Assembly: GCA_031266805.1 (NCBI GenBank)
Contig: JAISAH010000084.1
Span: 4,952 to 68,951, forward strand
Length of the DNA: 64,000 nt
Direction: 5' to 3'
Source: Gracilibacteraceae bacterium
GTDB taxonomy: Bacteria > Bacillota > Desulfitobacteriia > Desulfitobacteriales > Syntrophobotulaceae
The position numbers and the translations under genes were made by a program. Below, one piece after another: positions 13,696 to 36,591 of the stretch (position 1 is its first letter; every line of letters starts with the position of its first letter). Under the pieces are notes generated by a model, which worked only from the letters and a program-made list of their open reading frames with translations, ran no database searches and was not told where the DNA came from.

Positions 13696-13724
13696 CACGA
13701 GGACTTCTGGTTTGGTTCAACCGC

Positions 13725-15248: not shown

Positions 15249-15268
15249 CTGCTTTAACCTCCTCAATT

Positions 15269-16471: not shown

Positions 16472-16500
16472 TATTTTGCCTCAATTCATTAGTTATACGG

Positions 16501-17828: not shown

Positions 17829-17838
17829 GACTATTTCC

Positions 17839-19494: not shown

Positions 19495-19571
19495 TTAGCC
19501 TCCTGTTCTGATATAATTTTTTTTAACAATACTGGTTTTGCGGCGGGTGACAGAATGGAAAGGCGCACGGA

Positions 19572-20576
19572 ATGACACTTAAAGATATTCTGTATGTCAC
19601 TAAAGTAGCGGAGTTTTCCAGTTTTAGCCAGGCGGCCGAGTCGTTATACATCAGTCAGCCTGCTCTCAGCCAGTACATTATTCGGCTGGAAAAAGAATTG
19701 GGTGTGACTCTCTTTAACAGGGCCAAAAACAGTTGCCTGAGTCTTACTCCGGCCGGCGACCTCTTGGTCAGCGAAGGCGCAAACCTGTTGAAACACGCGC
19801 AAGAATTGCAATATAAACTGACGCATTTTGATACACAAGGCAAGGCTGTTTTGCACGTTGGGACGACCCGGCTTTATAGCCGGCATTATCTATCCCGGGT
19901 CTTATCCTCCTTCCATCTTGTTTCCCAGGCGGAAGTCTGCGTGGAGGATATGGTTTCCGCGCTGGAAGCAGAAAAAATGACAGCCTCCTTTGATTTGGAT
20001 CTCTGTTTAGTTCCCTCGCCGGTTATCGTGGACGGATTAGATTACCAAACAATATCTCAAGAAGAAGTATTTTTGGCTATTCCCAATAAACAGATTGAAA
20101 AACTCCAATTAAGCGATTGCTCTGCAATCCAGTCTGTTCCAGCCATTGATCTTTCTCAACTCAGGGAGGCGCCGTTCATTTTTTTAAAAAAGCATTCACG
20201 CTTTACGGCTCAAGCCTTGGAGTTATGCCATGAGGCGGGGTTTGTCCCCAATATTGTTTTTGAGACGGTCAGTTGGGATACTCTTTACTCATACGTAATG
20301 AATGGTCTGGGCGTCGGCTTTGTTCCCGAAGTACTTATTGATCAACGGAACAGTGACGCTGTCACTTTCTGCCGCTTGCGCGAAAAAAGAATCCTTCGGT
20401 CGCTGGTCATGGCTTACCCGGGAAGCACCCCTCCTTCTTTGGCTGCGTTGGAGTTTATCGAAACTGCGAAAACTGTTATTGGGCGAATCATGATGGAGAA
20501 GCAAAATTCGGTTTCTTTTGCAAAAAGCGATTCAGAATCAGGGACATCACGCCGATCAAAACGCCGAAAAGACTGA
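19572..20576 (+). CDS. LysR-family transcriptional regulator, divergent from the catabolic genes
   Basis: N-terminal HTH (FSQAAESLYISQPALSQYIIRLEKELGVTLFNR). The last 30 or so codons are antisense to the TRAP permease 3' end, so the tail is probably non-native. Confidence 0.85.
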   Translation: MTLKDILYVTKVAEFSSFSQAAESLYISQPALSQYIIRLEKELGVTLFNRAKNSCLSLTPAGDLLVSEGANLLKHAQELQYKLTHFDTQGKAVLHVGTTRLYSRHYLSRVLSSFHLVSQAEVCVEDMVSALEAEKMTASFDLDLCLVPSPVIVDGLDYQTISQEEVFLAIPNKQIEKLQLSDCSAIQSVPAIDLSQLREAPFIFLKKHSRFTAQALELCHEAGFVPNIVFETVSWDTLYSYVMNGLGVGFVPEVLIDQRNSDAVTFCRLREKRILRSLVMAYPGSTPPSLAALEFIETAKTVIGRIMMEKQNSVSFAKSDSESGTSRRSKRRKD

Positions 20577-22377
20577 TGTACCAAGATGGATATAAAAGCA
20601 GGAGACCGCCTGCCACGCTGCAAAAGCGCAATGGCATTTTGATTAATCGATCGAAGAATCCAACCATACCAACACCAATGAAATATACGCCGACCACCGC
20701 GGTTACGACGGCGATCAGGTTTTCTACCGGAGTACTCCTTAGCAGCAGCGCTTCGTTTTGCACAAAGAAAAAGGGGACTACAAAGGCGGGAAGGGCAATC
20801 CCCACAGCGGTAAACCCGGTTTTTACCCAATTGGCGCCGGATATAGCCGAAGCCATGTAGACCGCTGAACAAACAGGCGGGGTAATCGTAGCCAGCGCTG
20901 AGAAATAGATCATGAACATGTGAGCGACAAAAGTATTTACTCCCAAGGAACTCAAGGGCGGCACCAAAATGGCGGCGGCAATCACATAGACAGCGGCTGT
21001 CGGCAGTCCCATGCCAAGAATGATGCAAACGATCATGGAAAAGAAAAGACACAGGAAAAGGCTCGATTGACCCAACCCAACAATCCAGTCTGATATTTTG
21101 ATGCCAATACCTGTAGTATTGATTAATGAGATACTAATCTGCGCTCCTGTCATTAGAACTGTCATATCCACTATATTTTTGGCGCCGTTGTTCGATAAAT
21201 TGTAAAGCATACCGCCTGTTTTTACAGCAATAGCTTTCGGGTTCTTCTCCGCAGACAGGAAGACTGCGATATAGGTGGCAATGCCCAACAACGTCGCGTA
21301 ATACGCGGAGTACATGACGCTGTAACCGCGAAAAACAAAAAACATAAACATGGTGAGCGGCAGCAGGATTACTAAAAGCTCTCTGACATTAATTTTTTCT
21401 TTGGCGTCAATACCCATTATCCCATGGCGTTTTGCGTAATAATGGACGCAAATAAACACGCTGCCAAAGTAAAGCAGCGCCGGCACAATGGCCGCCTTCG
21501 CTATTGACAAATAACTTATTCCTAAAAGCGAAGCCATAATGAAAGCGGAAGAAGCCATGATCGGCGGCATTATCTGCCCGCCGGTCGATACCACCGCTTC
21601 CACGGCCCCCGCCCAAACCGATTTGAAGCCGGCTTTCTTCATCAGCGGGATAGTGAACGTCCCAACCGCCACCACATTTCCCATTGCGCTGCCGGAAACC
21701 ATCCCAAAAAGACAACTCGCAACCACAGCAACTTTACCCGGCCCGCCCACCATTCTTCCTGTAGCCATCAACCCCAGCTTGATGAATGTGTCAGCTCCGC
21801 CGGTTATGCTCAACATAGCGGCAAAAATACCGAACATAGCCAGCAAAGTAGCGGCTAATCCCACCATTGACCCCCAAAAACCGTTTGACATATGATATAA
21901 AAACTGAAAGAGATAATCAAAAGAAAAGCCTTTATGCCGCCAGCCGGGAGGGAAATATATGCCATATTTTGCATAAATCAGCAGCACGGCGCCCATTATC
22001 GGAAAGATCCAGCCAATCGCCCGCCGGCTTGCTTCCAAAATCAGTATAAATAAAAGGATCGCCCAAGCTTTATCAAAATAGCTGAACCACTGCAAAGGTC
22101 TGAGCAATAGATCTTTATTGTGGAATACAATATAGAGGCAGGCAATGATCGATAACAATGACAACGCGATGTCATAAGCCGGCACTTTCTTATTATCGGC
22201 GCTTTTTTTATTAATCGGCTTCAAGATAAAGCACATTCCGAGTACAAAAGCTAAATGGATAGGTCTTTGAATCAGGTCTGACAGAAGCCCTGTGGCGGTG
22301 ACATAGAATTGAAACAAGACCAGTGCGACAGAAGCTATGCCGATGATTAATTTCCAATTTTTGCTTAATTCTCGCAT
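20488..22377 (-). CDS. TRAP transporter fused permease (TAXI-type, DctQM-like)
   Basis: 629 aa, highly hydrophobic multi-span protein. Adjacent to a TAXI-type binding protein. Confidence 0.85.
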   Translation of the reverse strand: MRELSKNWKLIIGIASVALVLFQFYVTATGLLSDLIQRPIHLAFVLGMCFILKPINKKSADNKKVPAYDIALSLLSIIACLYIVFHNKDLLLRPLQWFSYFDKAWAILLFILILEASRRAIGWIFPIMGAVLLIYAKYGIYFPPGWRHKGFSFDYLFQFLYHMSNGFWGSMVGLAATLLAMFGIFAAMLSITGGADTFIKLGLMATGRMVGGPGKVAVVASCLFGMVSGSAMGNVVAVGTFTIPLMKKAGFKSVWAGAVEAVVSTGGQIMPPIMASSAFIMASLLGISYLSIAKAAIVPALLYFGSVFICVHYYAKRHGIMGIDAKEKINVRELLVILLPLTMFMFFVFRGYSVMYSAYYATLLGIATYIAVFLSAEKNPKAIAVKTGGMLYNLSNNGAKNIVDMTVLMTGAQISISLINTTGIGIKISDWIVGLGQSSLFLCLFFSMIVCIILGMGLPTAAVYVIAAAILVPPLSSLGVNTFVAHMFMIYFSALATITPPVCSAVYMASAISGANWVKTGFTAVGIALPAFVVPFFFVQNEALLLRSTPVENLIAVVTAVVGVYFIGVGMVGFFDRLIKMPLRFCSVAGGLLLLYPSWYISLFGVLIGVMSLILNRFLQKKPNFASPS

Positions 22378-22443
22378 TTAAAGCACTTCTCCTTTGGGTT
22401 TCCTCTTAGGTTTCCTCCGAAAAAAGGCGCGAGGAACCAGACC

Positions 22444-22473
22444 GCAGCTGCCGCTATGCCGCGCGGCAACTGC
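22444..22473 (-). other. Intercistronic stem-loop between the TAXI binding-protein and permease genes
   Basis: GCAGCTGCCGC-8 nt-GCGGCAACTGC (one mismatch). On the minus strand a T-run follows about 18 nt downstream (plus-strand A-run near 22420-22425). Confidence 0.3.
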
Positions 22474-22504
22474 TGACCTGATTTTCTAAAAAGCTTAGTT
22501 CAGT

Positions 22505-23542
22505 TCACTTCACAGGCTGGTATTCGGGAGGTATCAATTCTGCGGGAACGTCACGCCCGTTTTCCACTAACCATTGGACAGCCCCGGCGTGCAGCGGGAT
22601 CGGCGAATTCAATAACAGTTCGACTTCATCCTCGGCGGCATAAGCGGGAGTGATTTCCGCCCAGACGCTTTTGCCGTCGCCATAAACGGCTTTAATAAAC
22701 TTGTATCCATCTTCCTGAGACACGGCGGCGGAAGACTGGCAACCCTGCATCACCCTCACTGTCCGCACATCTTCGGTCAGGTCGTCATATTCTCCGGCTT
22801 TTATAACTCCGGGTACCAGAAATGGCATCGCGTCAAGACATTTAGCCATCAGTTCGTCAGATACAGGCAGAATGCGAACAGGAATCACTGACGCCATTTG
22901 CAGATGCGTGCTATTGGGTATGGAACCGGAAACTGCCAACCCAACGATCTGTTTGTTGCCGTAGGCGTCTACCGCATCATTCTTATTGCTTTCATAAGGG
23001 AGAACCTTGGCGCCGGAGATGTCAATGATTTGTTCAGTGATTTGAGCCATGGAGGTTCCAACGCCGCCAAAATTATAGCGTTGTCCATCCAACTCAGAAA
23101 AAGTCGTTATCCCGGATTCTTGAGATACAAGCACCTCAATTACCGTCATGCCATAGTACCATAGCACGCGGCTGTCCTTATTGGGATCTCCCTCAAAGGC
23201 TCCTGTTCCCATGTAGTTTTCAAAATCTGAGGAAGCTACGCCATTACCAAAATCCACCTCGCCAGAACGAATTCGATTTGCGATGTCCATAGCCCCCTGG
23301 GTCTCTGAAACTGTAAACTCATATTCCGGGTAAACTGAAGAGATTGCTTTGCCAATGGCCACCCAGTAAGGGTAAATAGCTGTTGTGGCCGCACCGGAAC
23401 CAATAGTCATATACTTGGTTTGCACAGTCGTACCTGAGTCTTGGCCGCCAGAGTTTGCCGGGCCGCTGCCGGCGCTCGTACCGCAAGCCGTTAGAGCGAC
23501 GGCTGTAATGATAACAAACAGCAAGATAGCTATCCTTTTCAT
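22505..23542 (-). CDS. TAXI-family TRAP solute-binding lipoprotein
   Basis: Lipobox ALTAC GT, then MTIGSGAATTAIYPYWVAIGKAIS...SETQGAMDIANRIRSGEVDFG, typical of TAXI. TAGGAGG lies 6 nt before the ATG at 23542. The ORF-track TTG start lies in the RBS. Confidence 0.8.
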   Translation of the reverse strand: MKRIAILLFVIITAVALTACGTSAGSGPANSGGQDSGTTVQTKYMTIGSGAATTAIYPYWVAIGKAISSVYPEYEFTVSETQGAMDIANRIRSGEVDFGNGVASSDFENYMGTGAFEGDPNKDSRVLWYYGMTVIEVLVSQESGITTFSELDGQRYNFGGVGTSMAQITEQIIDISGAKVLPYESNKNDAVDAYGNKQIVGLAVSGSIPNSTHLQMASVIPVRILPVSDELMAKCLDAMPFLVPGVIKAGEYDDLTEDVRTVRVMQGCQSSAAVSQEDGYKFIKAVYGDGKSVWAEITPAYAAEDEVELLLNSPIPLHAGAVQWLVENGRDVPAELIPPEYQPVK

Positions 23543-23552
23543 CCGTAACCTC

Positions 23553-24266
23553 CTAATCAACTCTCAGACATACTGGGTTTTGTCCATTTACAGTCATGCC
23601 GCCGTCAAAGACAAACTTGACTTCATTTTCTTCCATAGGCACAACTTCACGACTAAGCTCATTAATCCTTAGGCGGCAGTCATGGCCAGGCAGCAACACA
23701 TTCGCTTCGGGCATTATTTTCTGCAAATTCCGGCTAACGGCAGAGTTGTTTGTAAGCCCGGATTGCAACTCTCCGCGATTCTTTATCGCGTCGCCAAGTA
23801 TGGCCATCTTGTCAGAACCGCAATCCAAAACATAGGTTACGCTGCCTGGAGTATGCCCCGGTGTAAAGAGTGCTTTAACCCCAGGAATTATGGTCTCATG
23901 GTCCTTCTTTAACAGTTGCTTTTGAAAACTGTTCAAAGCTTGAATGCTCCACTTAGAAATGGCAGTGTCCTCACTTGAGTTTGCGTAAATCCACTCTGTT
24001 TCGGAGAATACATAAAGGGCGTCGGGAAAGAGGTCGCAATTCATAATGTGGTCATAATGCAAATGTGTGAGAAGGATCATGTTGATTTCTTGTAACGAAA
24101 TACTTCTTTTTGCCAGTTCGCGCAGAAGAGGCCGTCTGGCCATAGGAGCGCCCAGATCAACCAGGATTTTGTACTTATCAATGGAACAGAGAACAATTGA
24201 GGACCATGAAAGACCGCACCGATCAGGAACACCAGGGAAGCCCATGAGCAACAATTCCGCCGTCAA
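23553..24266 (-). CDS. MBL-fold metallo-hydrolase
   Basis: LLTHLHYDH motif with downstream TPGHTPGS. TTG start preceded by GAGGAGG. Confidence 0.8.
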   Translation of the reverse strand: MTAELLLMGFPGVPDRCGLSWSSIVLCSIDKYKILVDLGAPMARRPLLRELAKRSISLQEINMILLTHLHYDHIMNCDLFPDALYVFSETEWIYANSSEDTAISKWSIQALNSFQKQLLKKDHETIIPGVKALFTPGHTPGSVTYVLDCGSDKMAILGDAIKNRGELQSGLTNNSAVSRNLQKIMPEANVLLPGHDCRLRINELSREVVPMEENEVKFVFDGGMTVNGQNPVCLRVD

Positions 24267-24305
24267 TGTTTCACCTCCTCTTCTTTGCCTTGATAGCTGG
24301 TGTTA

Positions 24306-24605
24306 TTAGACGTCAATTTCCAGCAAAAATTGGCTGAGCGTCTTTCCATGCGGGTCAATAGCCAGCGACCGGGTAACACCTCCTCCTAACGCACCATGCA
24401 TAACAAAGTTCAAGGCGCCAATGGAAGGGATCTCATACCGCAAAACATCTCCGTGAACGATATCTTTAAAGAAGTTTTTGACTCGCGTCGCCGTGATTTT
24501 GTCAGCAATCAGTTCATAGTCTTTCATATTGTAAACGATTACTGAAATATTAGAAATATCGCCTTTGTCACCCGTTCGCGAATGAGCAATTTCGAGCAAT
24601 TTCAT
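24306..24605 (-). CDS. DUF4387-like small partner protein of the AtuA-like protein
   Basis: 99 aa: MKLLEIAHSRTGDKGDISNISV.... Directly abuts the stop of the upstream 447-aa gene. This pairing is the usual DUF1446/DUF4387 arrangement. Confidence 0.6.
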   Translation of the reverse strand: MKLLEIAHSRTGDKGDISNISVIVYNMKDYELIADKITATRVKNFFKDIVHGDVLRYEIPSIGALNFVMHGALGGGVTRSLAIDPHGKTLSQFLLEIDV

Positions 24606-25949
24606 TTAAACCTCCATATACTCCACATTGATGTTCACGTCTTCACCCGGAATCAAAATCGACAGAACGCTAACCACTCTTTTTACGCTTTCAACGCGCC
24701 CGCCACCTCCGCCTGGGCCGTTTAAGACATTGGAACCGCATTCATATATTATTTCTTCTGCTATTCTTTTATTCTTAACTCTTATGCTTACTCGCGCTCG
24801 CACTTCAGAAAGCGCTTGTTCACATGGCGGTCTCCTGCCTGGCAGCAAGGAATTGATTCCCATAATGTCGCTTCGCAGTTCTTGTACGGATTCCCCATAC
24901 ATTGCTTCCACCCGTTTTTTAACGCTCGCGACTAGGAGTTCGGCCCGTTCAACGCATTTCCAGCCGCCGTAACTGACCTCAATAGTGGCGATATAGCTGT
25001 CCAGATAGCCCACGGAGACCTTGAGGGTATCCGGTTTAGGCTTGCCAGTCACACCGGTCACTTTCACTCTGTCTTTTGCGATTTCCTCAAAAGATATTTT
25101 GCTGCAGTCAGCAATAACATCCGGAGTTAAATAATTTGCCGGATCATGGATTTCATATAATAGCTGCTCTTTGCAAGTCGCTGTTGTCACACAACCGCCG
25201 GCTTCTTCCAGCTTGGTTATAAAAACTTCTCCCCGCTCATTTATTTCAGCAATTGGAAACCCAAGATTCCAGAGATCTGGAACTTCTTTTTTTCCGGGTA
25301 CAGCGAAATATCCGCCCGAAACCTGAGCGGAACACTCTATCAAGTGACCGGCGATAGCGCAAGTCGCGGTCTTATCTAAAGAGTTCCGCCAACCAAATCG
25401 GTATATCGCGGGCGCCATAAAAAGCGCTGTATCTGTGCTGCGTCCGGTGATGACCACATCAGCGCCGTTCTCTAAGGCTTCATAAATACCTTCATAACCA
25501 ATATACGCATTTGCTGATACAATATAGTCTTTCAGATCTCCTAGTTTCAGATTCGGTTTTTCCATGAGCGGACACTCATAGTATTTATCAATTCTGCTAA
25601 AAATATCATCCCCATAGACAGCTGCAACTTTTAACGGCAGTTGATGTTTGGCGGCAATCTTGACAGCCAGCTCCGCCGCCGCTCGAACATTTGCCGCCCC
25701 CATATTTGTTATGACTTTGACATTGTGCTGATAAGCCAAGGGCAGTGCTTTTTCCAAGCGATATTCAAGCATCGTGTTATAGCCTTTGCTCGGATCTTCG
25801 AGCTTTCTCAGTTGCGCTAAAGAAATCGTTCTTTCCGCAAGGCATTCGAAAACAATGTAGTCTATATTGCCTTTAACAATTAGGTCCAGTGCCGGCTGAA
25901 GACGATCGGTTTCCATCCCCGCTCCCGCGCCAATGCGAATTGTTTCCAA
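24606..25949 (-). CDS. AtuA-like (DUF1446, acyclic terpene utilisation family) protein
   Basis: 447 aa: IRIGAGAGMETDRLQPALDLIVKGNIDYIVFECLAERTI.... Size and N-terminal pattern fit DUF1446. TTG start after AGGAGG. Confidence 0.65.
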   Translation of the reverse strand: METIRIGAGAGMETDRLQPALDLIVKGNIDYIVFECLAERTISLAQLRKLEDPSKGYNTMLEYRLEKALPLAYQHNVKVITNMGAANVRAAAELAVKIAAKHQLPLKVAAVYGDDIFSRIDKYYECPLMEKPNLKLGDLKDYIVSANAYIGYEGIYEALENGADVVITGRSTDTALFMAPAIYRFGWRNSLDKTATCAIAGHLIECSAQVSGGYFAVPGKKEVPDLWNLGFPIAEINERGEVFITKLEEAGGCVTTATCKEQLLYEIHDPANYLTPDVIADCSKISFEEIAKDRVKVTGVTGKPKPDTLKVSVGYLDSYIATIEVSYGGWKCVERAELLVASVKKRVEAMYGESVQELRSDIMGINSLLPGRRPPCEQALSEVRARVSIRVKNKRIAEEIIYECGSNVLNGPGGGGGRVESVKRVVSVLSILIPGEDVNINVEYMEV

Positions 25950-26124
25950 TGTTTACCTCCTGTGTTCATGAACAGTTTTCCTTGTGTCGAAAGAATTATG
26001 ACAGTCTTTTCGAACTATTGCAAATATTAAAATTCAATGCTGGATATAACACAGAGTTATACTGAGAGTTTCATTCACACGATAACGCCGCGGCCGCATG
26101 GTTATTTTTTCCACAAACAAAGTA

Positions 26125-26154
26125 TTGCGTTTAGCCTGTAAATGATGTTATAAT
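26125..26154 (+). promoter_or_regulatory. Candidate promoter of the His-rich/cooT/EBP operon
   Basis: TTGCGT, 18 nt, extended -10 TGtTATAAT. Confidence 0.45.
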
Positions 26155-26158
26155 AATC

Positions 26159-26178
26159 TTGAGTATCAGTATACTCAA
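26159..26178. promoter_or_regulatory. Perfect 8-4-8 palindrome TTGAGTAT-CAGT-ATACTCAA at the predicted transcription start
   Basis: Read directly. It sits 5 nt after the -10 element, in operator position. Confidence 0.35.
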
Positions 26179-26207
26179 AAGTTATATTAGGCGAGCGAGG
26201 AGACGGC

Positions 26208-26735
26208 ATGAATAAACCTGAACACTCACATGAGCATAATCATGAACACTCGCATGAGCATAATCATGGACATTCGCATGAGTGCGGTCATAATCACGAA
26301 CACCCGCATGAGCATAATCATGGGCAGTGCGGTCGCACCCACGCAAGTGTTTATTCTCACGGCCATGGGCATGAACACTCGCACGAACACAGTCATGAGC
26401 ATGAGCATTTTCATGAGCATGACGGCGAACAGCACGCTCACGGGCATAGCCACGCGCACGGGCATGATCACACACACAGCCATGCGCACGACCACGATCA
26501 CGAGCACAAACATGAGGCTGAATCCGAGGAAATAACGCGGATCCGGGCTATGATGAAATATTTGCTGGTCCACAACCAAGAACATGCCGCCGAACTGACG
26601 GATATGGCGAGCGTTTTGCGCGGCGCCGGGCATACGGCGGCGGCGGCCAAACTGACTGACGGCGCCGAGGGACTGAGGCGCGGCAGCGGCGCGCTGGCGG
26701 AGGCGCTGGCGTTACTGGGAGGGGGAGAAGGCTGA
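26208..26735 (+). CDS. Histidine-rich metal-binding protein (CooJ/Hpn-like by composition)
   Basis: About 100 N-terminal residues are almost entirely H-x-H repeats (HSHEHNHEHSHEHNHGHSHECGHNHEHPHEHNH...). A helical C-terminal domain of about 70 aa follows. The DNA is a degenerate tandem repeat of about 24 nt. The stop overlaps the cooT ATG. Confidence 0.8.
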   Translation: MNKPEHSHEHNHEHSHEHNHGHSHECGHNHEHPHEHNHGQCGRTHASVYSHGHGHEHSHEHSHEHEHFHEHDGEQHAHGHSHAHGHDHTHSHAHDHDHEHKHEAESEEITRIRAMMKYLLVHNQEHAAELTDMASVLRGAGHTAAAAKLTDGAEGLRRGSGALAEALALLGGGEG

Positions 26736-26929
26736 TGTGTTTGTCGGCGGTGTATACGACCGAGACGGACGGACAGCGCAATTTGGTGTGCGAGAGCGTC
26801 AGCGAGGTAGACGTAAAAGGGGATACGGTCGTTTTGACCGATATACTCGGCCGGGACGTCACGGTGCGCGGCGTCATCACCAAAATCGACCTTATCAGGA
26901 ATAACATTTTAATAGGAAAACCGGTCTGA
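26735..26929 (+). CDS. cooT: CooT-family nickel-binding protein
   Basis: 64 aa beginning Met-Cys (MCLSAVY...), with the pattern ...V.EV.V.GD.V.L.D.LG....V.G.I..IDL..N.I.I shared with Rhodospirillum CooT. Confidence 0.72.
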   Translation: MCLSAVYTTETDGQRNLVCESVSEVDVKGDTVVLTDILGRDVTVRGVITKIDLIRNNILIGKPV

Positions 26930-26938
26930 TAAAGACGT

Positions 26939-28897
26939 ATGAACCAGCCTGTCCGCACGAAGGAAGAGTGGGCGCGCCTGCATAGCCGGCCTGAGCGCTG
27001 GGGGATGTTGGGCGAAACGGTTCGGGCGGCCTGGGAGCGCAGCGCCGGTTACAATATAGATTTTATGAACGCGCTGCCGAAGAAATTGCCGGCGGCGAAT
27101 TATGAGCAGATCAAACGTCAGACCAAGCGGCTTTTTGTTTATGCCAACAGTGTTTTGGAGCCGTTGGCTCGAAGCGATTTGCTGGAAAATGTTGGCATCA
27201 TCCTGTTTGCTAATAACGGCGCCTTGTTGCGCCTGTACGGCGGCGAGCGTTTTTTGACTTGGGCGGCGGCCAGCCGGATTGAAGCGCGAACCAAGTGGGC
27301 GGAAGATCAGATCGGCGCGAATGTTTTTTCCGTCGGGATGCGTCAAGGCGCTTGCTTGCAGATGTCGGGCTTTGAGCATTACGCCGCTTTTCTCACCGGG
27401 GCCGCCTTTGTGTTCGCCCCGATGCGGCTGAACAACGGCGACATTATGTGCAGCATCGTATTGGCCGCGCCGGTAAAATACGCGAGCGAACTGTCGCCGG
27501 CTCTGGCGGTCTCTATCGTGCGCGGCATAGAACTGCAGCTGTTTTGGTTCACTCAGGTCGATAACACCGCCGACGCTGCCGAGGGTGTCGGCAACATTTC
27601 CCTGGATCAGTCCATCGGCGGCAACCGCATCCTGACTCTTAGCGAGGAAGTGAAAAAGATGCTGTCGCTGCCGCGGCGGGACTATTTTTACGAGGCGCTG
27701 GACGACGTCATCGAGCGAAGGCCGGAAAATAAACAGTTTTGGGATATCATCAACAACCGCGTGCGCGTGAATGAAAAAGCGGTCCAGCTGCTGCAGGGCG
27801 GCAAAAACGTTTTTTTCTATATGAGTACGGCGCCCTATAACGAAGAAGGGTTCCACATCAAGGGCATAAGCGTTTCCATGAATTCGCTCAAACATGTCGC
27901 CAAATTGGTGACGAGAGTCCACGGCGACGCCGCCAGCTACAGTTTTGACGACGTGGTGCATGAGTGCGAGGCGATGGCGGACGTGATCCGCAGCGCTAAA
28001 ATGGCGGCGGCCACGGACAGCAGCATCTTGCTGATGGGAGAAAGCGGAGTGGGAAAGGATGTCCTGGCCCAGGCCATCCACCGGGGCAGCAGGCGCGCCG
28101 CCAGACCGTTTGTGGCCATCAATTGCGCCTCGTTTTCCAAGGATCTGATCGCCAGCGAATTATTCGGCTACGAGCCGGGCGCTTTTACCGGCGCCCGCAA
28201 GGAAGGCAGTATCGGCAAATTTGAGCTGGCTAACACCGGCACGCTGTTTTTGGATGAAATCGGCGATATGCCGCTGGATTTGCAGGCGCTGCTGCTGCGG
28301 ATCCTGGAGGAGCGCAGTTTTCGCCGCGTGGGCGGCAATAATCTCATAGCGACCGATGTGCGCGTTATCACCGCGACCAATAAGAAGCTATGGGAATCCA
28401 TTGAAACCGGCATGTTTCGGGAGGATCTTTTTTACCGCCTGGGCGTCGCGCGCATTCAGATACCTCCTTTGCGCAGCAGAAACTCGGATATCGTCCTGCT
28501 GATCAATCACGCTTTGACCCGCATCTGCGCCCGGCTTGACAAACCGGCGGTCAGCATGGGGGAGGACGCGATCGCTTTTTGTAAGCGTTATACGTGGCCG
28601 GGCAATGTGCGGGAGCTGTTTAATCTTTTGGAAGGCATTATCAGCACCTCCGCCTCGGCGGTCATCAGCGAAGCGGAAATCAGGCGATACCTCGGCGCCG
28701 GTGATTTTGCGGCCGCCGCGCCGCCGCGCTCTTTCCCGCCGGAACGGGAAGATGAGGCGCCCACGCTCTATGACGAGAGACGGGATTTCGCTCAGATGCT
28801 GAAATTATGCCGCAATAATAAGACAAAGGCGGCGCGGAATTTGGGAGTGCCGCTCAGGACGTTTTACCGTAAACTGAAACGATACGGCATGATGTAG
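26939..28897 (+). CDS. Sigma-54-dependent enhancer-binding protein with AcoR/GAF-like sensor domain
   Basis: AAA+ core GESGVGKDVLAQAIH, GAFTGA motif (ELFGYEPGAFTGA), FLDEIGDMPLDLQALLLRILEE. C-terminal Fis-type HTH (NKTKAARNLGVPLRTFYRKLKRYG). No receiver domain. Confidence 0.92.
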   Translation: MNQPVRTKEEWARLHSRPERWGMLGETVRAAWERSAGYNIDFMNALPKKLPAANYEQIKRQTKRLFVYANSVLEPLARSDLLENVGIILFANNGALLRLYGGERFLTWAAASRIEARTKWAEDQIGANVFSVGMRQGACLQMSGFEHYAAFLTGAAFVFAPMRLNNGDIMCSIVLAAPVKYASELSPALAVSIVRGIELQLFWFTQVDNTADAAEGVGNISLDQSIGGNRILTLSEEVKKMLSLPRRDYFYEALDDVIERRPENKQFWDIINNRVRVNEKAVQLLQGGKNVFFYMSTAPYNEEGFHIKGISVSMNSLKHVAKLVTRVHGDAASYSFDDVVHECEAMADVIRSAKMAAATDSSILLMGESGVGKDVLAQAIHRGSRRAARPFVAINCASFSKDLIASELFGYEPGAFTGARKEGSIGKFELANTGTLFLDEIGDMPLDLQALLLRILEERSFRRVGGNNLIATDVRVITATNKKLWESIETGMFREDLFYRLGVARIQIPPLRSRNSDIVLLINHALTRICARLDKPAVSMGEDAIAFCKRYTWPGNVRELFNLLEGIISTSASAVISEAEIRRYLGAGDFAAAAPPRSFPPEREDEAPTLYDERRDFAQMLKLCRNNKTKAARNLGVPLRTFYRKLKRYGMM

Positions 28898-29125: not shown

Positions 29126-29141
29126 TGGCATGAGAATTGCA
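29126..29141 (+). promoter_or_regulatory. Sigma-54 (-24/-12) promoter
   Basis: TGGCAT-GAGAA-TTGCA matches the TGGCAC-N5-TTGCA consensus. It is 85 nt before the first operon gene and directly downstream of an EBP gene. Confidence 0.72.
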
Positions 29142-29225: not shown

Positions 29226-30017
29226 ATGATCACAGTGGGAATCGACAGCGGCAGTCAAAATATAAAAGCGGTGGCGCTGCAGGACGGCGCGGTCGTCGCC
29301 AGAGCCAAGATCCTGGCGGAATTTGACGCGGTGAAAGCGGCGGAAGCGGTTTACGAACTGGTCTTGCGGCAGGCGGGCCTGACTGAGAGCGATGTGGAGG
29401 CGGTGGCGGCGACCGGAGCGGGACGCGCCCTTGTGCCGTTTGCCGTTTTATGTATCAACGAAGTCAGTTCCGCCTCCAAAGGGGCGCGCATGGTCAGGCC
29501 CGGCGCGGAGGTGGTGATCGACCTTGGGGCGGAGAGCAGCCGCGCCATCCGCCTCCAGCCGGACGGCAAGGTCAAAAAATACGAGATCAACGATAAATGC
29601 GCTTCCGGCGCCGGGACGTTCATCGAAACGATGGCCCGCGCCCTGCAGATGGAAATCGAGGACATGGGGCCTTATTCGCTCCGGCATACGCGGGAAGTGC
29701 CCATGAACGCTCAATGCGTCGTTTTCGCGGAATCGGAAGTCGTCTCGCTGATCCATCAGCAAGAGTCCAAGGAAAATATCGCCTACGCCATCCATATGGG
29801 CATCGCCAACCGGGTCGGCGCGCTGTTCCGCCGTCTGGGACTCTCTGACGAACTGGTCCTGATCGGCGGCCCGGCCCTCAATGTGGGTCTGGTCGAATGT
29901 ATGGGCAAGGAATCGGGCCGGAAAATATTCGTGCCCGAGTATCCGGATTTTATCAGCGCTATGGCCGCGGCCGCGGCGGCGGCCGAAAACGCGCGGGGAG
30001 GTGTCGCCGGTGGCTGA
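29226..30017 (+). CDS. BcrAD/BadFG/HgdC-family ATPase (electron-activating component), subunit 1
   Basis: 263 aa: MITVGIDSGSQNIKAV...NDKCASGAGTFIE.... ASKHA fold with cluster-bridging Cys context. Confidence 0.87.
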   Translation: MITVGIDSGSQNIKAVALQDGAVVARAKILAEFDAVKAAEAVYELVLRQAGLTESDVEAVAATGAGRALVPFAVLCINEVSSASKGARMVRPGAEVVIDLGAESSRAIRLQPDGKVKKYEINDKCASGAGTFIETMARALQMEIEDMGPYSLRHTREVPMNAQCVVFAESEVVSLIHQQESKENIAYAIHMGIANRVGALFRRLGLSDELVLIGGPALNVGLVECMGKESGRKIFVPEYPDFISAMAAAAAAAENARGGVAGG

Positions 30018-30921
30018 CGGGCATATCGAGAAAGTAGAATATTGGCGCTGGGAGGAATCTCGGTGGAAAAATCCGGAAATCCCGGACTGGCGCGGCTCTT
30101 TGGTGACGGCGGGCGTAGATATAGGTTCCACCAGCACTCAGGCCGCGATCATGACGGACGGCCAGCTTTACGCTTACGCCAGCATCCGGACGGGTTCCAA
30201 TAGCCCCTCGTCCGCCGTGGACGCCATGAACTGGGCGCTGGAGGGCACGGAGCTGACGCCGGCAGATTTGCACTATACGGTGGGCACGGGCTACGGACGG
30301 GTCAACGTGCCTTTTGCCGACAGCACCGTGACCGAGATCACCTGCCACGCCAAAGGGGCCAACTATATCTACGGGCCGACGGTGCGGACGCTGCTGGATA
30401 TGGGCGGGCAGGACTGCAAGGCCATCCACTGTGACGAAAACGGCGCCGTTACCTCGTTCATGATGAATGACAAATGTGCCGCCGGCACCGGGCGCGGCAT
30501 GGAGGTCATCGCCAATCTGCTGGCCGTCCACGTGGAGGATATCGGGGAGATGTCTTTCCGCATCGACGCCGAGCCGCCGCCGGTGTCCAGCATCTGCGTG
30601 ATTTTCGCCAAAACGGAGGCCACCAACCTGATGCGTTCGGGCTGGTCCAAGGAAAAAGTGCTGGCCGCTTACTGTCACGCGATGGCGCTGCGCGTCGCGC
30701 GTCTGCTGGAGAGAAACGAAATGCAGCTGGATTTTGCCATCACCGGCGGCATCGCCAAAAACAGCGGCGTGGTGAAGCGCATCGAGCGGCTGATCGGCGC
30801 GGAGGCGCTGCGGACCGATTACGACGCGCAGATTGCCGGCGCTCTGGGCGCGGCGCTGATGGGGAAAGCGCTGCACGAAAAAAAGGGCGGTAAGTCCGGG
30901 CGACGAAGGGAGGGCGGCTGA
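30010..30921 (+). CDS. BcrAD/BadFG/HgdC-family ATPase, subunit 2 (distinct paralog with an N-terminal extension of about 35 aa)
   Basis: ...LVTAGVDIGSTSTQAAI...NDKCAAGTGRGMEV...ITGGIAKN. The GTG at 30010 follows GGAGG and overlaps the upstream stop. The exact start is uncertain; 30001 is an alternative. Confidence 0.8.
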   Translation: MADGHIEKVEYWRWEESRWKNPEIPDWRGSLVTAGVDIGSTSTQAAIMTDGQLYAYASIRTGSNSPSSAVDAMNWALEGTELTPADLHYTVGTGYGRVNVPFADSTVTEITCHAKGANYIYGPTVRTLLDMGGQDCKAIHCDENGAVTSFMMNDKCAAGTGRGMEVIANLLAVHVEDIGEMSFRIDAEPPPVSSICVIFAKTEATNLMRSGWSKEKVLAAYCHAMALRVARLLERNEMQLDFAITGGIAKNSGVVKRIERLIGAEALRTDYDAQIAGALGAALMGKALHEKKGGKSGRRREGG

Positions 30922-30923
30922 AG

Positions 30924-31208
30924 ATGATCGCCAATTACGGCTGCGAAGACGGTTCCGGAGTATATTATATCCGGATCGACACGGGAAAATGCGGGGATTG
31001 CCAGCTCCGCGGCTGCGTGGGCGGATGTCCGCGGGAGCTGTTTGTGATAGAGGAGGATGATTGGGGCGACGAGATGGCCGTCGTGCGGGAAGACAGGCGC
31101 CGGACCCTGCAAGCCGCCTGCGCGGCCTGCAAACCCCAGGATCGCCCGCCGGACCCTTTGCCTTGCCAGAGCGCCTGCGGCAGACAGGCGATCGAACACA
31201 GCTGGTAA
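30924..31208 (+). CDS. Small ferredoxin-like Cys-rich protein
   Basis: 94 aa with C-x2-C-x4-C-x3-CP, then CAAC-x11-C-x3-C. Plausibly a 2x[4Fe-4S]-type protein with non-canonical spacing. Confidence 0.55.
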   Translation: MIANYGCEDGSGVYYIRIDTGKCGDCQLRGCVGGCPRELFVIEEDDWGDEMAVVREDRRRTLQAACAACKPQDRPPDPLPCQSACGRQAIEHSW

Positions 31209-31269
31209 ATAGTGGATATCTAAATACTCAGTGAGTTTTAGAGACATCCCAAGTGAGGAGGATATCAAA

Positions 31270-32058
31270 ATGGACATGAAGACGGAGTACCGGAGCATCA
31301 AGTATGAGACGGCTGACCGCGTCGCCACGGTCACTATGTGCGTTCCGGAAAAGATGAACGCTCTGGACGCGAGACTGGGGGAAGAACTGGCGTCGGCGCT
31401 GGCGCGGGCCAAAGCGGACGCCGCGGTCAAAGTCGTCGTGCTGACTGGGATGGGGAACGCTTTTTGCGCCGGCGGCGACTTGACGGGTTTTCCGGCGCTG
31501 GATCTCCAGACCGCCGCCGAAGGCATCCGTGATTCGGCCCGGTCGCTGGTCGGCGCTTTTACCAAATTGCCGAAACCGATCATCGCCGCGGTCAACGGTT
31601 TTGCCGTGGGGGCGGGATTGTCTCTGGCCCTGATCAGTGACATCGTGCTGGCTTCGGACAAGGCTGTGTTCGGCGCCGCTTTTGTCAATGTGGGCCTGAT
31701 CCCGGACATCGGCTCGCTCTTTTATCTGCCGCGGCTGATCGGGCTGCCCAGAGCGAAAGAACTGGCTTTTACCGGGCGCAATCTCAGCGCGCAGGAAGCT
31801 CTGACGATGGGCATCGTCAACCGGGTGACGGAAAACGACGCGCTGGCGGCGGAGGCGGCGAAACTGGCCGGGAAACTGGCGAGGCAGCCGGCCCTGGCGA
31901 TGGCGCAGGCCAAAGCGCTGCTCCACGCCAGTCTGGAGATCGGCGTCGACGAACTCATCGAGCTGGAGGGCATGGCCCAGGGGATCTGTATGCAGTCGGA
32001 AGATTCCCGTGAAGGCGTCGACGCGTTTTTGCACAAAAGGAAACCAAATTTTAAATAA
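31270..32058 (+). CDS. Enoyl-CoA hydratase/isomerase (crotonase) family protein
   Basis: ...VVVLTGMGNAFCAGGDL...PIIAAVNGFAVGAGLSLAL.SDI.... GAGGAGG lies 8 nt before the ATG at 31270. Confidence 0.88.
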   Translation: MDMKTEYRSIKYETADRVATVTMCVPEKMNALDARLGEELASALARAKADAAVKVVVLTGMGNAFCAGGDLTGFPALDLQTAAEGIRDSARSLVGAFTKLPKPIIAAVNGFAVGAGLSLALISDIVLASDKAVFGAAFVNVGLIPDIGSLFYLPRLIGLPRAKELAFTGRNLSAQEALTMGIVNRVTENDALAAEAAKLAGKLARQPALAMAQAKALLHASLEIGVDELIELEGMAQGICMQSEDSREGVDAFLHKRKPNFK

Positions 32059-32072
32059 CCGGGAGGGCACAA

Positions 32073-33212
32073 ATGAGTACGGAAACATTGTTTGAAAAAG
32101 CCGAACTGCGAAATTCCTCCGTGAAGGCCTGGAAAGAGCAGGGCAAAAAAATCATCGGCACGGTCTGCTGTCATGTGCCGGAGGAGATACTGCACGCCGC
32201 CGGCGCGATGCCTTATCGCCTGCGGGCCACGGGAGTCACGGATCTGAGCGAAGGCGACACATGGATGTCCACTTTTACCTGCAGCTACGCCCGCGGGACT
32301 CTGCAGTATCTGATCGACGGAACATTCGACTTCATGGACGGCGTGATTTCTTCGGACGGCTGCCTGATGGCCGGGCGTATTTTCGATAATTGGAAATATG
32401 TGGATGGCAACGCGGAGAAAAAGGAATTCTATTTGAAACAGATCGCGGCCCCGCGCATGAATAACGAAAACGCCGTCAGATATTACCGCGACTATCTGGA
32501 CCAGATGCGGACCGAACTGGGCGCTTATATGGGCGTGGAGATCACCGATGAGAAGATCCGGGCCTCCGTCGCCCTTTACAACGAGACCCGCCGGCTGATC
32601 CGCGCCCTGTACGATCTGAGCAAAAGCGACGCTCCCGTCGTCAGCGGGACCGAGCGCCTGAAACTCATCCTAGCCGCGTCCTCAATGCCCAAGGAAGAAT
32701 ACAATGAGATGCTGAAAGACTTTTTGGCAAGGGCCGGGAGCAGAGCCCCGATCAAGAACTATCGCGCCCGGATCATGCTCGTCGGCAGCGCGCTGGACGA
32801 CCCGGAGTATATCAAAGTCATCGAGGATAAGGGCGGTCTGGTGGTCACTGACGCCCTGTGTTTCGGCACCCGCTATCTCTGGGAGCCGGTCGAGCTGGAA
32901 GGCGGCGACGTCCTGACCTCCATTGCCGCTTCTTACCTGAAACGCCCCGTATGTCCGCGGATGGTGGATCTGCACGACGAGTTCGGGGATCTGATAGTTA
33001 ATTTTTGCCAGGATTTCAAAGTGGACGGCATCATCTACGAGCGCGTCAAATACTGTGAGATCTGGGGCGGCGAGGGTCTGTATTTCGGCGAGCACAAGGG
33101 CATGAAGGAAGCGGACGTCCCGCTGATCTTGCTGGAGCGCGAGGAGATCATGACCAATATCGGCCAGCTGGCCGTGCGCGCCGAAGCGTTTATCGAAATG
33201 ATCGAGAAATAA
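32073..33212 (+). CDS. HGD-D family subunit (BcrC/BzdN or HgdB/HadC-like)
   Basis: 379 aa: ...KIIGTVCCHVPEEILHAAGAMPYRL...; conserved Cys at VCCH, FTCSY, DGCLM and PVCPRM. Confidence 0.85.
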   Translation: MSTETLFEKAELRNSSVKAWKEQGKKIIGTVCCHVPEEILHAAGAMPYRLRATGVTDLSEGDTWMSTFTCSYARGTLQYLIDGTFDFMDGVISSDGCLMAGRIFDNWKYVDGNAEKKEFYLKQIAAPRMNNENAVRYYRDYLDQMRTELGAYMGVEITDEKIRASVALYNETRRLIRALYDLSKSDAPVVSGTERLKLILAASSMPKEEYNEMLKDFLARAGSRAPIKNYRARIMLVGSALDDPEYIKVIEDKGGLVVTDALCFGTRYLWEPVELEGGDVLTSIAASYLKRPVCPRMVDLHDEFGDLIVNFCQDFKVDGIIYERVKYCEIWGGEGLYFGEHKGMKEADVPLILLEREEIMTNIGQLAVRAEAFIEMIEK

Positions 33213-33236
33213 CCGAGTAAACTAGGAGGAAAAACC

Positions 33237-34490
33237 ATGAGCAATTTGATTGGGACTATTTCGCGTCAAGTTGACAGCGTCATCGAACACGCCAAGGAAA
33301 AATACGCGGATCAGATGTGGATGTTCGATGTGCAGAAAGCGTCCTGGGACGCCGTTTACCACGCCCATGACGAGGGCAAACGCCTGATCTATGTCGGCGC
33401 CTGCGCCCCGGTCGAACTGATTTACGCCTTTGACTGCGTGCCGTTCGTGCTGGACATGATCCCCACCCGTCTGGCCTCCACGCCGGAAGTAGCCGCCCGG
33501 TATATCGATCTGGCGGAGAAATATATCGCGCCGACGATGTGCGGCATCGATAAAGTGGATATCGGCGCCATCCTCTCCGGGGACATGCCGGACAAACCGG
33601 ACGCTTTTATCTATTCCACCGTTCCCTGCGACAACTCCCGCGTGGCCTACCCCTTCATCTGCGATCGGCTGGGATGTCCGTCCTATTGCATCGACGTCCC
33701 TTTCCGCAAAAACGAAATGGGTTTTGACTATATGGCCAGGCAGTATAAGGAAATCATCGTCTTCCTGGAAAAACTGACCGGCAAGAAGCTGGACTGGGAT
33801 AAGTTCCAGGAGATCATGACGATTTCCAACCAGACAAACGATCTGATGAACAAGATCGCCGACCTGCGCAGGATCACGCCCTGCCCGCTGCCGGGGCGCC
33901 TCTTGGTCCTGAATGAGATGATCCCGGGCATGGTGGGGCATCCGGCTATGCTTTCCTATCTGGAAGCGCAGTACGCCATCGGTCAGGACGCGGTCGCCAA
34001 AGGCCTGGGCGCGGTCAAAGAGGAAAAATACCGCGTATCCTGGCTGCAAAACATGCTGTGGTCCAACGTGGGCATCCTCGACTGGATGGAGCGGAAGTTC
34101 GGGGCGGTCCTGGTCATGGACGCCTTTGGCTATCAGCGCGGGCATGTTTTCCGGGATATAGACGATCTGGACACGATCTGCGTCGATTTTGCCAAAAAAG
34201 GGCTGGCCCTGCCCATGATCCATGGCGCCTCCGGCCCGGTCGAGGACTATATCGATCTGGTGGAAAACACGATGGGCGACTACAATGTCAGCGTATCCAT
34301 GTTCATCGGCCACGTGGGCTGCAAACACACCTGGGCCGCCGCCAAGATCATCACGGACATGATCCAGGAAAAATTCGGTCTGCCGACTTTATATCTGGAT
34401 GTGGACGCCGTGGACGGACGTTACAAGAAGACGGATGAGATCAGGGCCCTTATCACCGAATATATGGAAACAATAGAAGAAAATAAGTGA
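33237..34490 (+). CDS. HGD-D family subunit (BcrB/BzdO or HgdA/HadB-like)
   Basis: 417 aa: ...LIYVGACAPVELIYAFDCVPFVLD...TMCGIDK...VPCDNS.... Paralog of the previous gene. Confidence 0.85.
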   Translation: MSNLIGTISRQVDSVIEHAKEKYADQMWMFDVQKASWDAVYHAHDEGKRLIYVGACAPVELIYAFDCVPFVLDMIPTRLASTPEVAARYIDLAEKYIAPTMCGIDKVDIGAILSGDMPDKPDAFIYSTVPCDNSRVAYPFICDRLGCPSYCIDVPFRKNEMGFDYMARQYKEIIVFLEKLTGKKLDWDKFQEIMTISNQTNDLMNKIADLRRITPCPLPGRLLVLNEMIPGMVGHPAMLSYLEAQYAIGQDAVAKGLGAVKEEKYRVSWLQNMLWSNVGILDWMERKFGAVLVMDAFGYQRGHVFRDIDDLDTICVDFAKKGLALPMIHGASGPVEDYIDLVENTMGDYNVSVSMFIGHVGCKHTWAAAKIITDMIQEKFGLPTLYLDVDAVDGRYKKTDEIRALITEYMETIEENK

Positions 34491-34497
34491 GAGACGT

Positions 34498-35253
34498 ATG
34501 GACAGAGTAAGATCAATAGCGGTGACCGGTAAAGGCGGTACGGGAAAAACCGTGCTGGCGACTTTGCTGATCAGGCTGCTGGCGGAGCGTTTTCCGGGCC
34601 GGGTGCTGGCCATAGACGCCGATTCGGCCATGAGCCTGCCTTATACCTTGGGACTGGAGCTAAAGGGTACGGTGAGCGAGGTCCGGAAGAACATCATCGG
34701 TTCCCGCGAAGCCAAGGAAAAACTAAATGATGGCCCGACCAAGTCCGTGATGCGCGGTATACTCACCAGCGGCGGCGGGTTTGACCTGCTGGTCATGGGC
34801 CGGCCGGAGGAACCCGGTTGTTTCTGCGCCGTGAACGAATTGCTGCGCTATGGGATAGATACGCTGATCACGGACTACGAAGCGGTGGTGATCGACGGGG
34901 AAGCGGGACCGGAGCAGCTGAACCGGCGCGTTCTGAAAAGCATCGACGTCCTGCTGGTGGCGGCGGATATGTCGGCGCGCAGTCTGGAGACGGCGGCCGG
35001 CATCATCCGGGTGGCGAACAGCTATGAAGACGGTCTGCGCGTGGGGCGAGCCGGGCTGATCCTCAACCGGGTGAGGGGCGACCGGCCGGCGGAGGAGGTT
35101 TTGCGGCGGATCGGATTGGAAATTTTTGGAACTTTGCCGGAGGATGATCTGCTGAACGAGTATGACAGGGAAGGTCGCTCGCTCCTGGAACTGCCGCTGG
35201 ATTCGCCCTGTCCGCTGGCGGCGCGGGAGATACTCGACCGGATATATGAATGA
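34498..35253 (+). CDS. CooC/AcsF-type MinD-family metallochaperone ATPase with CxC motif
   Basis: Deviant Walker A GKGGTGKT, the CooC metal-binding CxC in GCFCAVNE, and EAGPEQL (CooC GAGIEHL equivalent). 251 aa. Confidence 0.8.
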   Translation: MDRVRSIAVTGKGGTGKTVLATLLIRLLAERFPGRVLAIDADSAMSLPYTLGLELKGTVSEVRKNIIGSREAKEKLNDGPTKSVMRGILTSGGGFDLLVMGRPEEPGCFCAVNELLRYGIDTLITDYEAVVIDGEAGPEQLNRRVLKSIDVLLVAADMSARSLETAAGIIRVANSYEDGLRVGRAGLILNRVRGDRPAEEVLRRIGLEIFGTLPEDDLLNEYDREGRSLLELPLDSPCPLAAREILDRIYE

Positions 35254-36572: not shown

Positions 36573-36591
36573 TTTTGGAGGAAACAAGGTA

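Follow-up and report, generated by a model that had tools for sequence, protein, structure and literature searches.

We analysed a 64,000-nucleotide stretch of contig JAISAH010000084.1 from a Gracilibacteraceae bacterium, referred to below as the window, and describe here two small genes that lie side by side at 26208-26929. The first encodes a histidine-rich protein resembling the nickel chaperone CooJ, and the second encodes a member of the CooT family. The genome (assembly G000 in our own numbering, in which G stands before genomes, C before contigs, and L before loci) was assembled from a termite-gut metagenome into 152 contigs totalling 3.38 Mb, with a completeness of 95%. An earlier note on this DNA had described a 175-amino-acid (aa) His-rich protein with a helical domain behind its His tract, whose stop codon overlaps the ATG of a 64-aa protein starting with Met-Cys. 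This description agrees with what we found:

26208-26735, forward strand: CooJ-like protein of 175 aa, N-terminal His-rich tract followed by a predicted DUF8180 helical hairpin
26208-26513, forward strand: His-rich tract, residues 1-102
26523-26717, forward strand: DUF8180 (PF26551) domain, two helices
26735-26929, forward strand: CooT, 64 aa, Met-Cys start, PF10133 match

The two genes share one base: the His-rich gene ends in a TGA at 26733-26735, and its final A is the first base of the cooT ATG. Residues 1-102 of the 175-aa protein comprise 42 His, 14 Glu, and 2 Cys and contain 20 HxH triplets, and the resulting tract of ~100 residues compares with roughly 20-60 in most homologues. The earlier note had traced the tract to a degenerate repeat of about 24 nucleotides (nt). 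Tandem Repeats Finder does report a 24-nt degenerate unit (4.4 copies, 76% matches), but confines it to 26212-26322, so that the claim stands for the first third of the tract, while the remainder shows 6- and 12-nt periodicity.

Besides this genome, our set comprises four metagenome-assembled genomes (MAGs) of the same genus, G092 to G095. Orthologues of both genes are present in two of them, G093 (Gx485_bin213, the nearest relative) and G094, and because these orthologues keep the reading frame, the invariant residues, and the gene adjacency, we take both small genes to be real. G092 and G095 lack CooT. The His-rich protein measures 175, 183, and 131 aa across the three pair-bearing congeners, the change in length lying in the tract. 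On the G094 contig, the called gene for the 131-aa protein is confined to its final 55 codons. A second termite-gut metagenome contains a strain that is ~95% identical; its contigs break inside the His-tract repeat (26273-26325), so this metagenome gave no answer on length polymorphism of the tract within the population. Assemblies may often truncate or mis-size His tracts of this kind.

The 64-aa protein belongs to the CooT family, as the earlier note had recognised. It matches PF10133 at 67.6 bits (E = 1.2e-18, cut-off 27), with residues 1-60 aligned to profile positions 1-59 of 60, and it begins MCLSAVY, with a Cys at position 2; in Rhodospirillum rubrum CooT, Cys2 is a nickel ligand (PMC6006190). 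The G094 orthologue, at 45% identity, scores 54.5 bits on the same model. Within its order, few CooTs score as low as the window protein (66 bits versus 80-90), and phmmer found no match to it in the PDB at E<=1. It resembles the CooTs of R. rubrum and Carboxydothermus hydrogenoformans in its length of ~64 aa, its Met-Cys start, and its strong Pfam match, but differs from them in that its gene lies outside any coo operon. In two genomes of the same order (L021:874-1443, L024:2531-3181), TsaA/TrmO-like proteins with a C-terminal His-rich tail adjoin CooT genes, and this tailed protein may be another His-rich partner of CooT.

DUF8180 proteins and their pairing with CooT

The C-terminal 76 residues of the His-rich protein are predicted by AlphaFold2 to form a two-helix hairpin, with a mean predicted local distance difference test (pLDDT) score of 91.3. 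Local Pfam and NCBIfam model sets, the former without a PF26551 model, gave no match for the protein, and word-indexed homology searches with the helical domain and with CooT returned nothing or just one near-identical relative. Exhaustive phmmer was needed to recover the family: with residues 100-175 as the query, it retrieved 46 relatives at E<=1e-3, which are 56-176 aa long and combine a variable N-terminal His tract with the same C-terminal domain. A profile of those relatives led to 1156 proteins, and all 120 of the matches listed carry the label PF26551 (DUF8180), as does the G094 orthologue; many of these homologues bear the NCBI name "cobalt transporter". The window protein is assigned to DUF8180 through such precomputed labels on its homologues and not by a direct hmmscan. 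The genome encodes exactly one DUF8180 protein and one CooT.

An alignment of 41 members shows no variation at H122, N123, H126, and E129 and next to none at Y118. H122, H126, and E129 fall on helix 1 with the spacing i, i+4, i+7. The conserved site in the window protein can be written Y-x3-H-N-x2-H-x2-E, and its family-wide form is [H/Y]-x3-H-N-x2-H-x2-E.

Home-made hidden Markov models, applied to all fetched loci, placed cooT behind the DUF8180 gene on the same strand, and no more than 300 nt away, in all but one of 23 non-redundant loci (22 of 23). DUF8180 and CooT therefore form a near-obligate and widespread gene pair, and only its placement in this genome is uncommon. The account in the earlier note needs correcting here, as the pairing is not special to this locus: elsewhere, in many anaerobic Firmicutes, the pair usually heads clusters for carbon monoxide dehydrogenase/acetyl-CoA synthase (CODH/ACS). 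At five loci from public assemblies (L045, L047, L048, L087, and L088), the gene order is DUF8180, cooT, then (MTHFR)-CooC-CooS; the run goes on via a second CooC to AcsB in the first four of these, and the L088 locus ends at the first CooC. In Lachnospiraceae-type acetogens, the cluster with the pair at its head is CooC-CooS-CooC-AcsB.

Our sample of the phylum comprised 401 genomes, 16 of which encode DUF8180, 15 besides the one studied here. An ACS cluster lies within 10 kb of the pair at 6 of the 15 sampled loci, and in 2 of the 15 genomes the pair adjoins genes for a CbiMNQO-type energy-coupling factor (ECF) transporter. CooS was present in every DUF8180-positive genome (15/15), as against 10 of 30 arbitrary DUF8180-negative genomes (Fisher p=1.2e-5), in a comparison that is small and uncorrected for kinship. 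Relatives in the same family have a CooT without DUF8180 about 2 kb from the ACS cluster. Further DUF8180 settings are likewise related to nickel or cobalt, namely CbiMNQO-type ECF transporters and a Nik/Opp-type ABC system. At L086:7001-13441, a DUF8180 gene without a called CooT immediately precedes the genes for a LysR regulator and a Nik/Opp-type ABC importer, the latter made up of SBP_bac_5, two permeases, and two ATPases. At L055, L058, and L059 (~9300-10400), a tract-less DUF8180 protein with HWIEHNRSH, an exact instance of the CooJ motif, is followed by CooT and then by a conserved 127-140-aa protein (MIIAVVDGMGGGIGSQI...), and in L058 and L059 this set adjoins the ECF transporter genes.

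A comparable gene pair has been studied in acetogens. In Clostridium autoethanogenum and others, a His-rich protein gene, hp (CAETHG_1604), stands beside a CooT-family gene, nbp (CAETHG_1605), at the C1-fixing, or Wood-Ljungdahl, cluster, and deletion of hp or nbp in C. autoethanogenum leads to growth defects (PMC10230548). According to a genomic survey, CooJ and CooT also occur in CODH operons of clade E that are tied to one-carbon metabolism (PMC13056359). Going by the published description of hp, the window pair has in common with hp-nbp that a small His-rich gene sits beside a CooT-family gene. It differs in lying away from CODH/ACS, in one unit with a sigma-54 activator gene and ahead of a Bzd-like operon, and in the unusual length of its His tract, in which it also stands apart from most homologues.

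The likeness of the His-rich protein to CooJ needs closer definition. The earlier note had called it CooJ-like and a partner of CooT, which is well founded in that the cooT-paired family includes members with the CooJ motif: DUF8180-type proteins of the phylum sample carry it exactly (LLAHWIEHNxSHEE). In hhalign, these HWxxHxxxH-type proteins match the Tyr-type family, which includes the window protein, with a probability of 98.5% (E=1.6e-15), and Y118 is aligned to the first His of HWxxHxxxH. The window protein itself, with YLLVHNQEH, does not match the CooJ nickel-site motif H(W/F)xxHxxxH: the first motif His is a Tyr and the W/F position is a Leu, the second and third His are kept, and there are an additional invariant Asn and Glu.

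The note had also taken the N-terminal position of the tract as an argument for analogy rather than orthology with CooJ. That argument loses its force, as N-terminal-tract CooJs have been published, Shewanella fodinae SfCooJ and that of Clostridium pasteurianum BC1, with a helical domain of roughly 60 residues carrying HWxxHxxxH; the same work notes that CooJ is hard to recognise by sequence (bioRxiv 10.64898/2026.03.10.710785). With R. rubrum CooJ (6HK5), SfCooJ, and the C. pasteurianum BC1 protein, the window protein shares a His-rich disordered region and a short helical domain with a His motif on one of its helices, and its gene likewise adjoins cooT. The tract of R. rubrum CooJ is C-terminal, whereas that of the window protein is N-terminal and its gene has no adjacent cooS. 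The coo-type gene set is dispersed here, with cooT adjacent, a CooC-like gene 7.5 kb away in another operon, and cooS on another contig.

Neither type of DUF8180 protein, HWxxHxxxH or Tyr, was linked to R. rubrum CooJ by profile or fold search. Three PDB sequence searches at E<=10 did not retrieve 6HK5, and Foldseek with the hairpin gave no significant PDB match and left 6HK5 outside the top 50. Its top matches were non-significant rubrerythrin/ferritin half-bundles, and we do not use structure to claim homology to CooJ. Judged by its sequence, the window protein thus falls short of CooJ in the strict sense, as it lacks both the motif and a detectable homology to R. rubrum CooJ, the founding member. 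In our reading, it is a CooJ-type protein of the sort with the tract at the N-terminus, its site altered to Y-x3-H-N-x2-H-x2-E. Long HxH-type tracts that bind several Ni(II) are also found in Hpn and Hpn-like of Helicobacter and in the His-rich tails of HypB, UreE, and SlyD, but these proteins have neither a helical domain of the DUF8180 type nor CooT as a partner. Altogether, the two genes in all likelihood constitute a CooJ-type/CooT nickel chaperone module (DUF8180 plus PF10133).

Genomic neighbourhood of the pair

Six further features surround or follow the two genes in the window:

26125-26154, forward strand: candidate sigma-70-type promoter, TTGCGT, 18-nt spacer, TATAAT, read from the sequence
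26159-26178, no strand assigned: perfect 8-4-8 palindrome TTGAGTAT-CAGT-ATACTCAA (in full, TTGAGTATcagtATACTCAA), immediately after the -10 hexamer
26939-28897, forward strand: predicted sigma-54 enhancer-binding protein, 652 aa (PF00158, 2.9e-65; AAA_lid_14; HTH_8)
29126-29141, forward strand: putative sigma-54 promoter (TGGCAT-N5-TTGCA) for the Bzd-like operon, preceded by GGCGCGTTATGGCA direct repeats, read from the sequence
29226-34490, forward strand: genes for a Bzd-like ATP-driven acyl-CoA reductase/dehydratase
34498-35253, forward strand: CooC-like ATPase, 251 aa, with a deviant Walker A motif (GKGGTGKT) and a CxC motif (GCFCAV)

The promoter hexamers recur in the orthologous region of G093. 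A consensus promoter scan did not list the TTGCGT/TATAAT pair, whose -35 hexamer matches at 3 of 6 positions. The core of the palindrome, GAGTATcagtATACTC, is conserved in G093 as well, and the palindrome is a candidate repressor operator, possibly for a metal-sensing repressor. It is the sole exact copy in the 3.38-Mb genome, and the idea of a palindrome regulon was rejected for want of a second one. Upstream of the promoter, a block encoding LysR, a thiamine pyrophosphate enzyme, thiolase, TAXI-TRAP, and AtuA (13700-26200) has a GC fraction of 0.46-0.51, which rises exactly at the spacer before the His-rich gene. G093 shares the AtuA/His-rich junction, and the junction therefore predates the split of the two species.

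Such an operator would suit a pair that acts as a general cytoplasmic buffer or store of nickel, cobalt, or zinc, with no dedicated client and a metal-sensing repressor at the palindrome. The very large His tract of variable length agrees with this idea, as do the unique perfect palindrome just past the -10 hexamer and the occurrence of DUF8180-CooT or lone DUF8180 next to importers of the CbiMNQO and Nik/Opp types and in housekeeping settings. It is also in line with the report that nickel supplementation did not separate the C. autoethanogenum nbp mutant from the wild type (PMC10230548). We nevertheless think it improbable that buffering is the role of the pair: all sampled DUF8180-positive genomes have CooS; the strictness with which DUF8180 is paired with CooT, a specific transfer protein, favours a delivery pathway over a simple store; and no metal-sensor gene stands beside the pair.

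The activator gene starts 9 nt after cooT in the same orientation, with no terminator-like site between them, and co-transcription of the pair with it, as the earlier note had proposed, is very probable. The putative sigma-54 promoter at 29126-29141, by its sequence, sets the Bzd-like operon apart as a transcription unit distinct from the chaperone pair. The operon encodes two ATPases, BzdP-like and BzdQ (the latter with 381.6 bits on TIGR03192), a 94-aa ferredoxin-like open reading frame (ORF), an enoyl-CoA hydratase, a BzdN-like subunit, and a strongly diverged BzdO-like subunit, with HGD-D matched on both the N-like and the O-like subunits. It continues with a 251-aa CbiA-family ATPase, which is the CooC-like protein listed above, a CoA-transferase, an acyl-CoA dehydrogenase, EtfBA, an acyl-CoA ligase, and a major facilitator superfamily transporter. 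The acyl-CoA dehydrogenase ORF (36271-37725, TTG start) overlaps the CoA-transferase gene by ~300 nt; its Pfam match begins at residue 112, and the true start is probably near 36590. In two Oscillospiraceae MAGs (L071 and L073), four or five successive BzdN/O-like pairs are accompanied by just one BzdP/Q pair, one gene for a ferredoxin-like protein, and one for a CooC-like ATPase, a layout that suggests a family of catalytic modules, each specific for a substrate, with an electron-activating module in common.

Pfam scans of the larger ORFs bear out the earlier statement that the window contains no cooS, acs, hydrogenase, urease, or lar gene; the other large ORFs are his, leuA, thiC, the TAXI-TRAP/AtuA block, purine genes, and homoserine dehydrogenase. 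The further impression that nothing nickel-related lies nearby overlooked the ATPase at 34498-35253, 7.5 kb downstream of the pair. Its sole PDB match at E<=1e-5 is C. hydrogenoformans CooC1 (3KJE), in which CYC aligns with its CFC. In a tree, it falls in a separate long-branch clade (support 99/100), and its identity to the CooCs encoded in ACS clusters is 33-35%; by tree and identity, it is not orthologous to CODH/ACS-associated CooC or AcsF. Across the Bzd-like operons of Gracilibacteraceae, Eubacteriaceae, and Oscillospiraceae it is 69-71% identical, and because this exceeds the 48-68% of the catalytic subunits, we regard it as a conserved accessory of these operons.

The congeners bear on how firmly the pair is attached to this neighbourhood. 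G093 has the same layout as this genome. In G094, uvrBA on the opposite strand is followed by the 131-aa His-rich gene, CooT, BzdP-like, and BzdQ-like; the gaps measure 2 and 62 nt, neither an activator nor a sigma-54 promoter intervenes between these genes, and a convergent P-type ATPase gene lies downstream. Because this four-gene cluster retains the linkage in a different arrangement, the pair has stayed with the Bzd-like ATPase module through rearrangement. A metal pump was rejected as a conserved neighbour, since the orthologue of the G094 P-type ATPase sits on contig C87 in this genome.

These arrangements raise a second alternative, in which the pair and the CooC-like ATPase of the operon form a trio that inserts nickel or another metal into the diverged BzdN/O-like subunits or their cluster. 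Several observations speak for such a client. The adjacency is conserved in G000, G093, and G094; the four genes of G094 are tightly clustered; the window pair is very probably co-transcribed with the activator of the operon; and the ATPase has a CxC metal motif, matches C. hydrogenoformans CooC1, and is better conserved than the catalytic subunits. In addition, the pairs of G093 and G094 are intact though we found no CooS or ACS there, an absence for which the incompleteness of the MAGs could account. On the other hand, no member of the benzoyl-CoA reductase/2-hydroxyacyl-CoA dehydratase/double-cubane family is known to contain nickel, and literature on benzoyl-CoA reductase with CooC yielded nothing relevant. 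Outside the genus, no CooT or DUF8180 lies within 10 kb of Bzd-like operons, and the CooC-like gene is missing from several Bzd-like loci (L068, L069, and L072). The three adjacent cases may stem from a single ancestral juxtaposition, and DUF8180-CooT tracks CooS everywhere else.

On balance, we regard the trio as unlikely, if worth keeping in view. We are slightly more sceptical of the broader proposition that a CODH-type chaperone set (DUF8180, CooT, and a private CooC-like ATPase) has been recruited to an enzyme of the benzoyl-CoA-reductase/2-hydroxyacyl-CoA-dehydratase family in this termite-gut genus. If it were true, the diverged HGD-D-type subunits would carry a nickel-containing or otherwise chaperone-inserted metal centre, and the enzyme would be the first of that family of radical enzymes to contain nickel.

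Nickel enzymes of the genome and the client of the pair

A search of the genome for nickel enzymes, as the earlier note had proposed, found CODH/ACS with two CooCs, an Ech-type [NiFe] hydrogenase, and LarA. The CODH/ACS genes form a complete cluster on contig C113 at 70-83.7 kb (70444-83646, L084), where two RACo-like genes are followed by cooC-acsA/cooS-cooC-acsB-acsD-acsC-acsE. The CooCs of this contig are sister to those of the Lachnospiraceae-type clusters headed by DUF8180-CooT and not to those of its own family. The composition of C113 gave no sign of mis-binning: the contig ranks 55 of 78 by tetranucleotide distance and has a GC fraction of 0.589, the median being 0.568. The 20-kb CODH/ACS region is missing from the four congeneric MAGs, and together with the grouping of the CooCs this makes horizontal acquisition, strain-specific content, or mis-binning possible.

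The hydrogenase is a further conceivable recipient. Its large subunit (RICGIC and DPCISC motifs) occurs in the pair-bearing G000, G093, and G094 and was not found in the CooT-less G092 and G095, and the present genome has hypA, hypCDE, and hypF, while no hypB was found in it. All five congeners nonetheless have HypA, and G092, G094, and G095 have HypB as well, so that the genus has the standard route of nickel insertion; we accordingly rate a hydrogenase client low. Moreover, the pair is never beside hydrogenase genes in the sampled loci, and CooC, CooT, and CooJ of R. rubrum do not mature its CO-induced hydrogenase (PMC6006190). That the pair feeds the Ech-type enzyme is thus highly improbable.

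CODH/ACS acting in trans is the likeliest main client, with our confidence at about the midpoint. In its favour are the place of the pair at the head of CODH/ACS clusters elsewhere, the co-occurrence with CooS, the growth defects of the hp and nbp mutants, and, in this genome, a complete cluster whose CooCs are sister to those of pair-headed clusters, together with a single CooT and a single DUF8180. Several points weigh against it. The earlier note had raised the possibility of a nickel-enzyme operon lying just outside the window; this did not hold, the pair being at least ~31 kb from either end of its own contig and the CODH/ACS contig unlinked, but C113 does supply a plausible client at a distance. 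That contig could be strain-specific or mis-binned, and its 20-kb ACS region has no DNA match in G093, an assembly of 1.9 Mb versus 3.38 Mb here. No CooS or ACS was found in G093 or G094, where absence is weak evidence as these MAGs are 83-88% complete; the Prismane matches in the genus are Hcp-sized, and none matches AcsA. The pair adjoins Bzd-like genes in all three congeners that have it, in two arrangements. The CODH/ACS cluster already has two CooCs, and some CODHs mature without CooT or CooJ (PMC6006190). The failure of sequence and fold searches to reach R. rubrum CooJ, described above, counts in the same direction.

If CODH/ACS is the client, the pair could be pictured as working as follows, by analogy with R. 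rubrum CooJ/CooT. The ~100-residue His/Glu tract would serve as a multi-site Ni(II) sponge, and the hairpin would oligomerise to a helical bundle in which H122, H126, and E129, on one face, form an interface metal site. A CooT dimer would take nickel via Cys2 and hand it to a CooC-type ATPase, which would load the enzyme. The module would have become detached from its usual client, with a promoter/operator of its own and transcription together with the sigma-54 activator, and would supply the CODH/ACS cluster of C113, which has two CooCs, in trans. The reality of the genes, their family membership, the conserved pairing, the co-occurrence with CooS across genomes, and the presence of CODH/ACS in this assembly are results of the analysis; nickel binding, the path of the metal from one protein to the next, and the choice of client are inferred.

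Because of the near-obligate pairing with cooT, the co-occurrence with CooS, and the conserved site, DUF8180, so far uncharacterised in Pfam, gains a concrete and testable identity as an N-terminal-tract CooJ-type partner of CooT. This identity would aid the annotation of Wood-Ljungdahl clusters and the choice of maturation factors for heterologous CODH/ACS expression. The genus itself amounts to a natural experiment, in which the pair stands apart from CODH/ACS and is tied to a Bzd-like operon with its own CooC-like ATPase, and the locus is suited to asking whether CooC-type ATPases and CooT/CooJ-type chaperones serve enzymes besides CODH/ACS.

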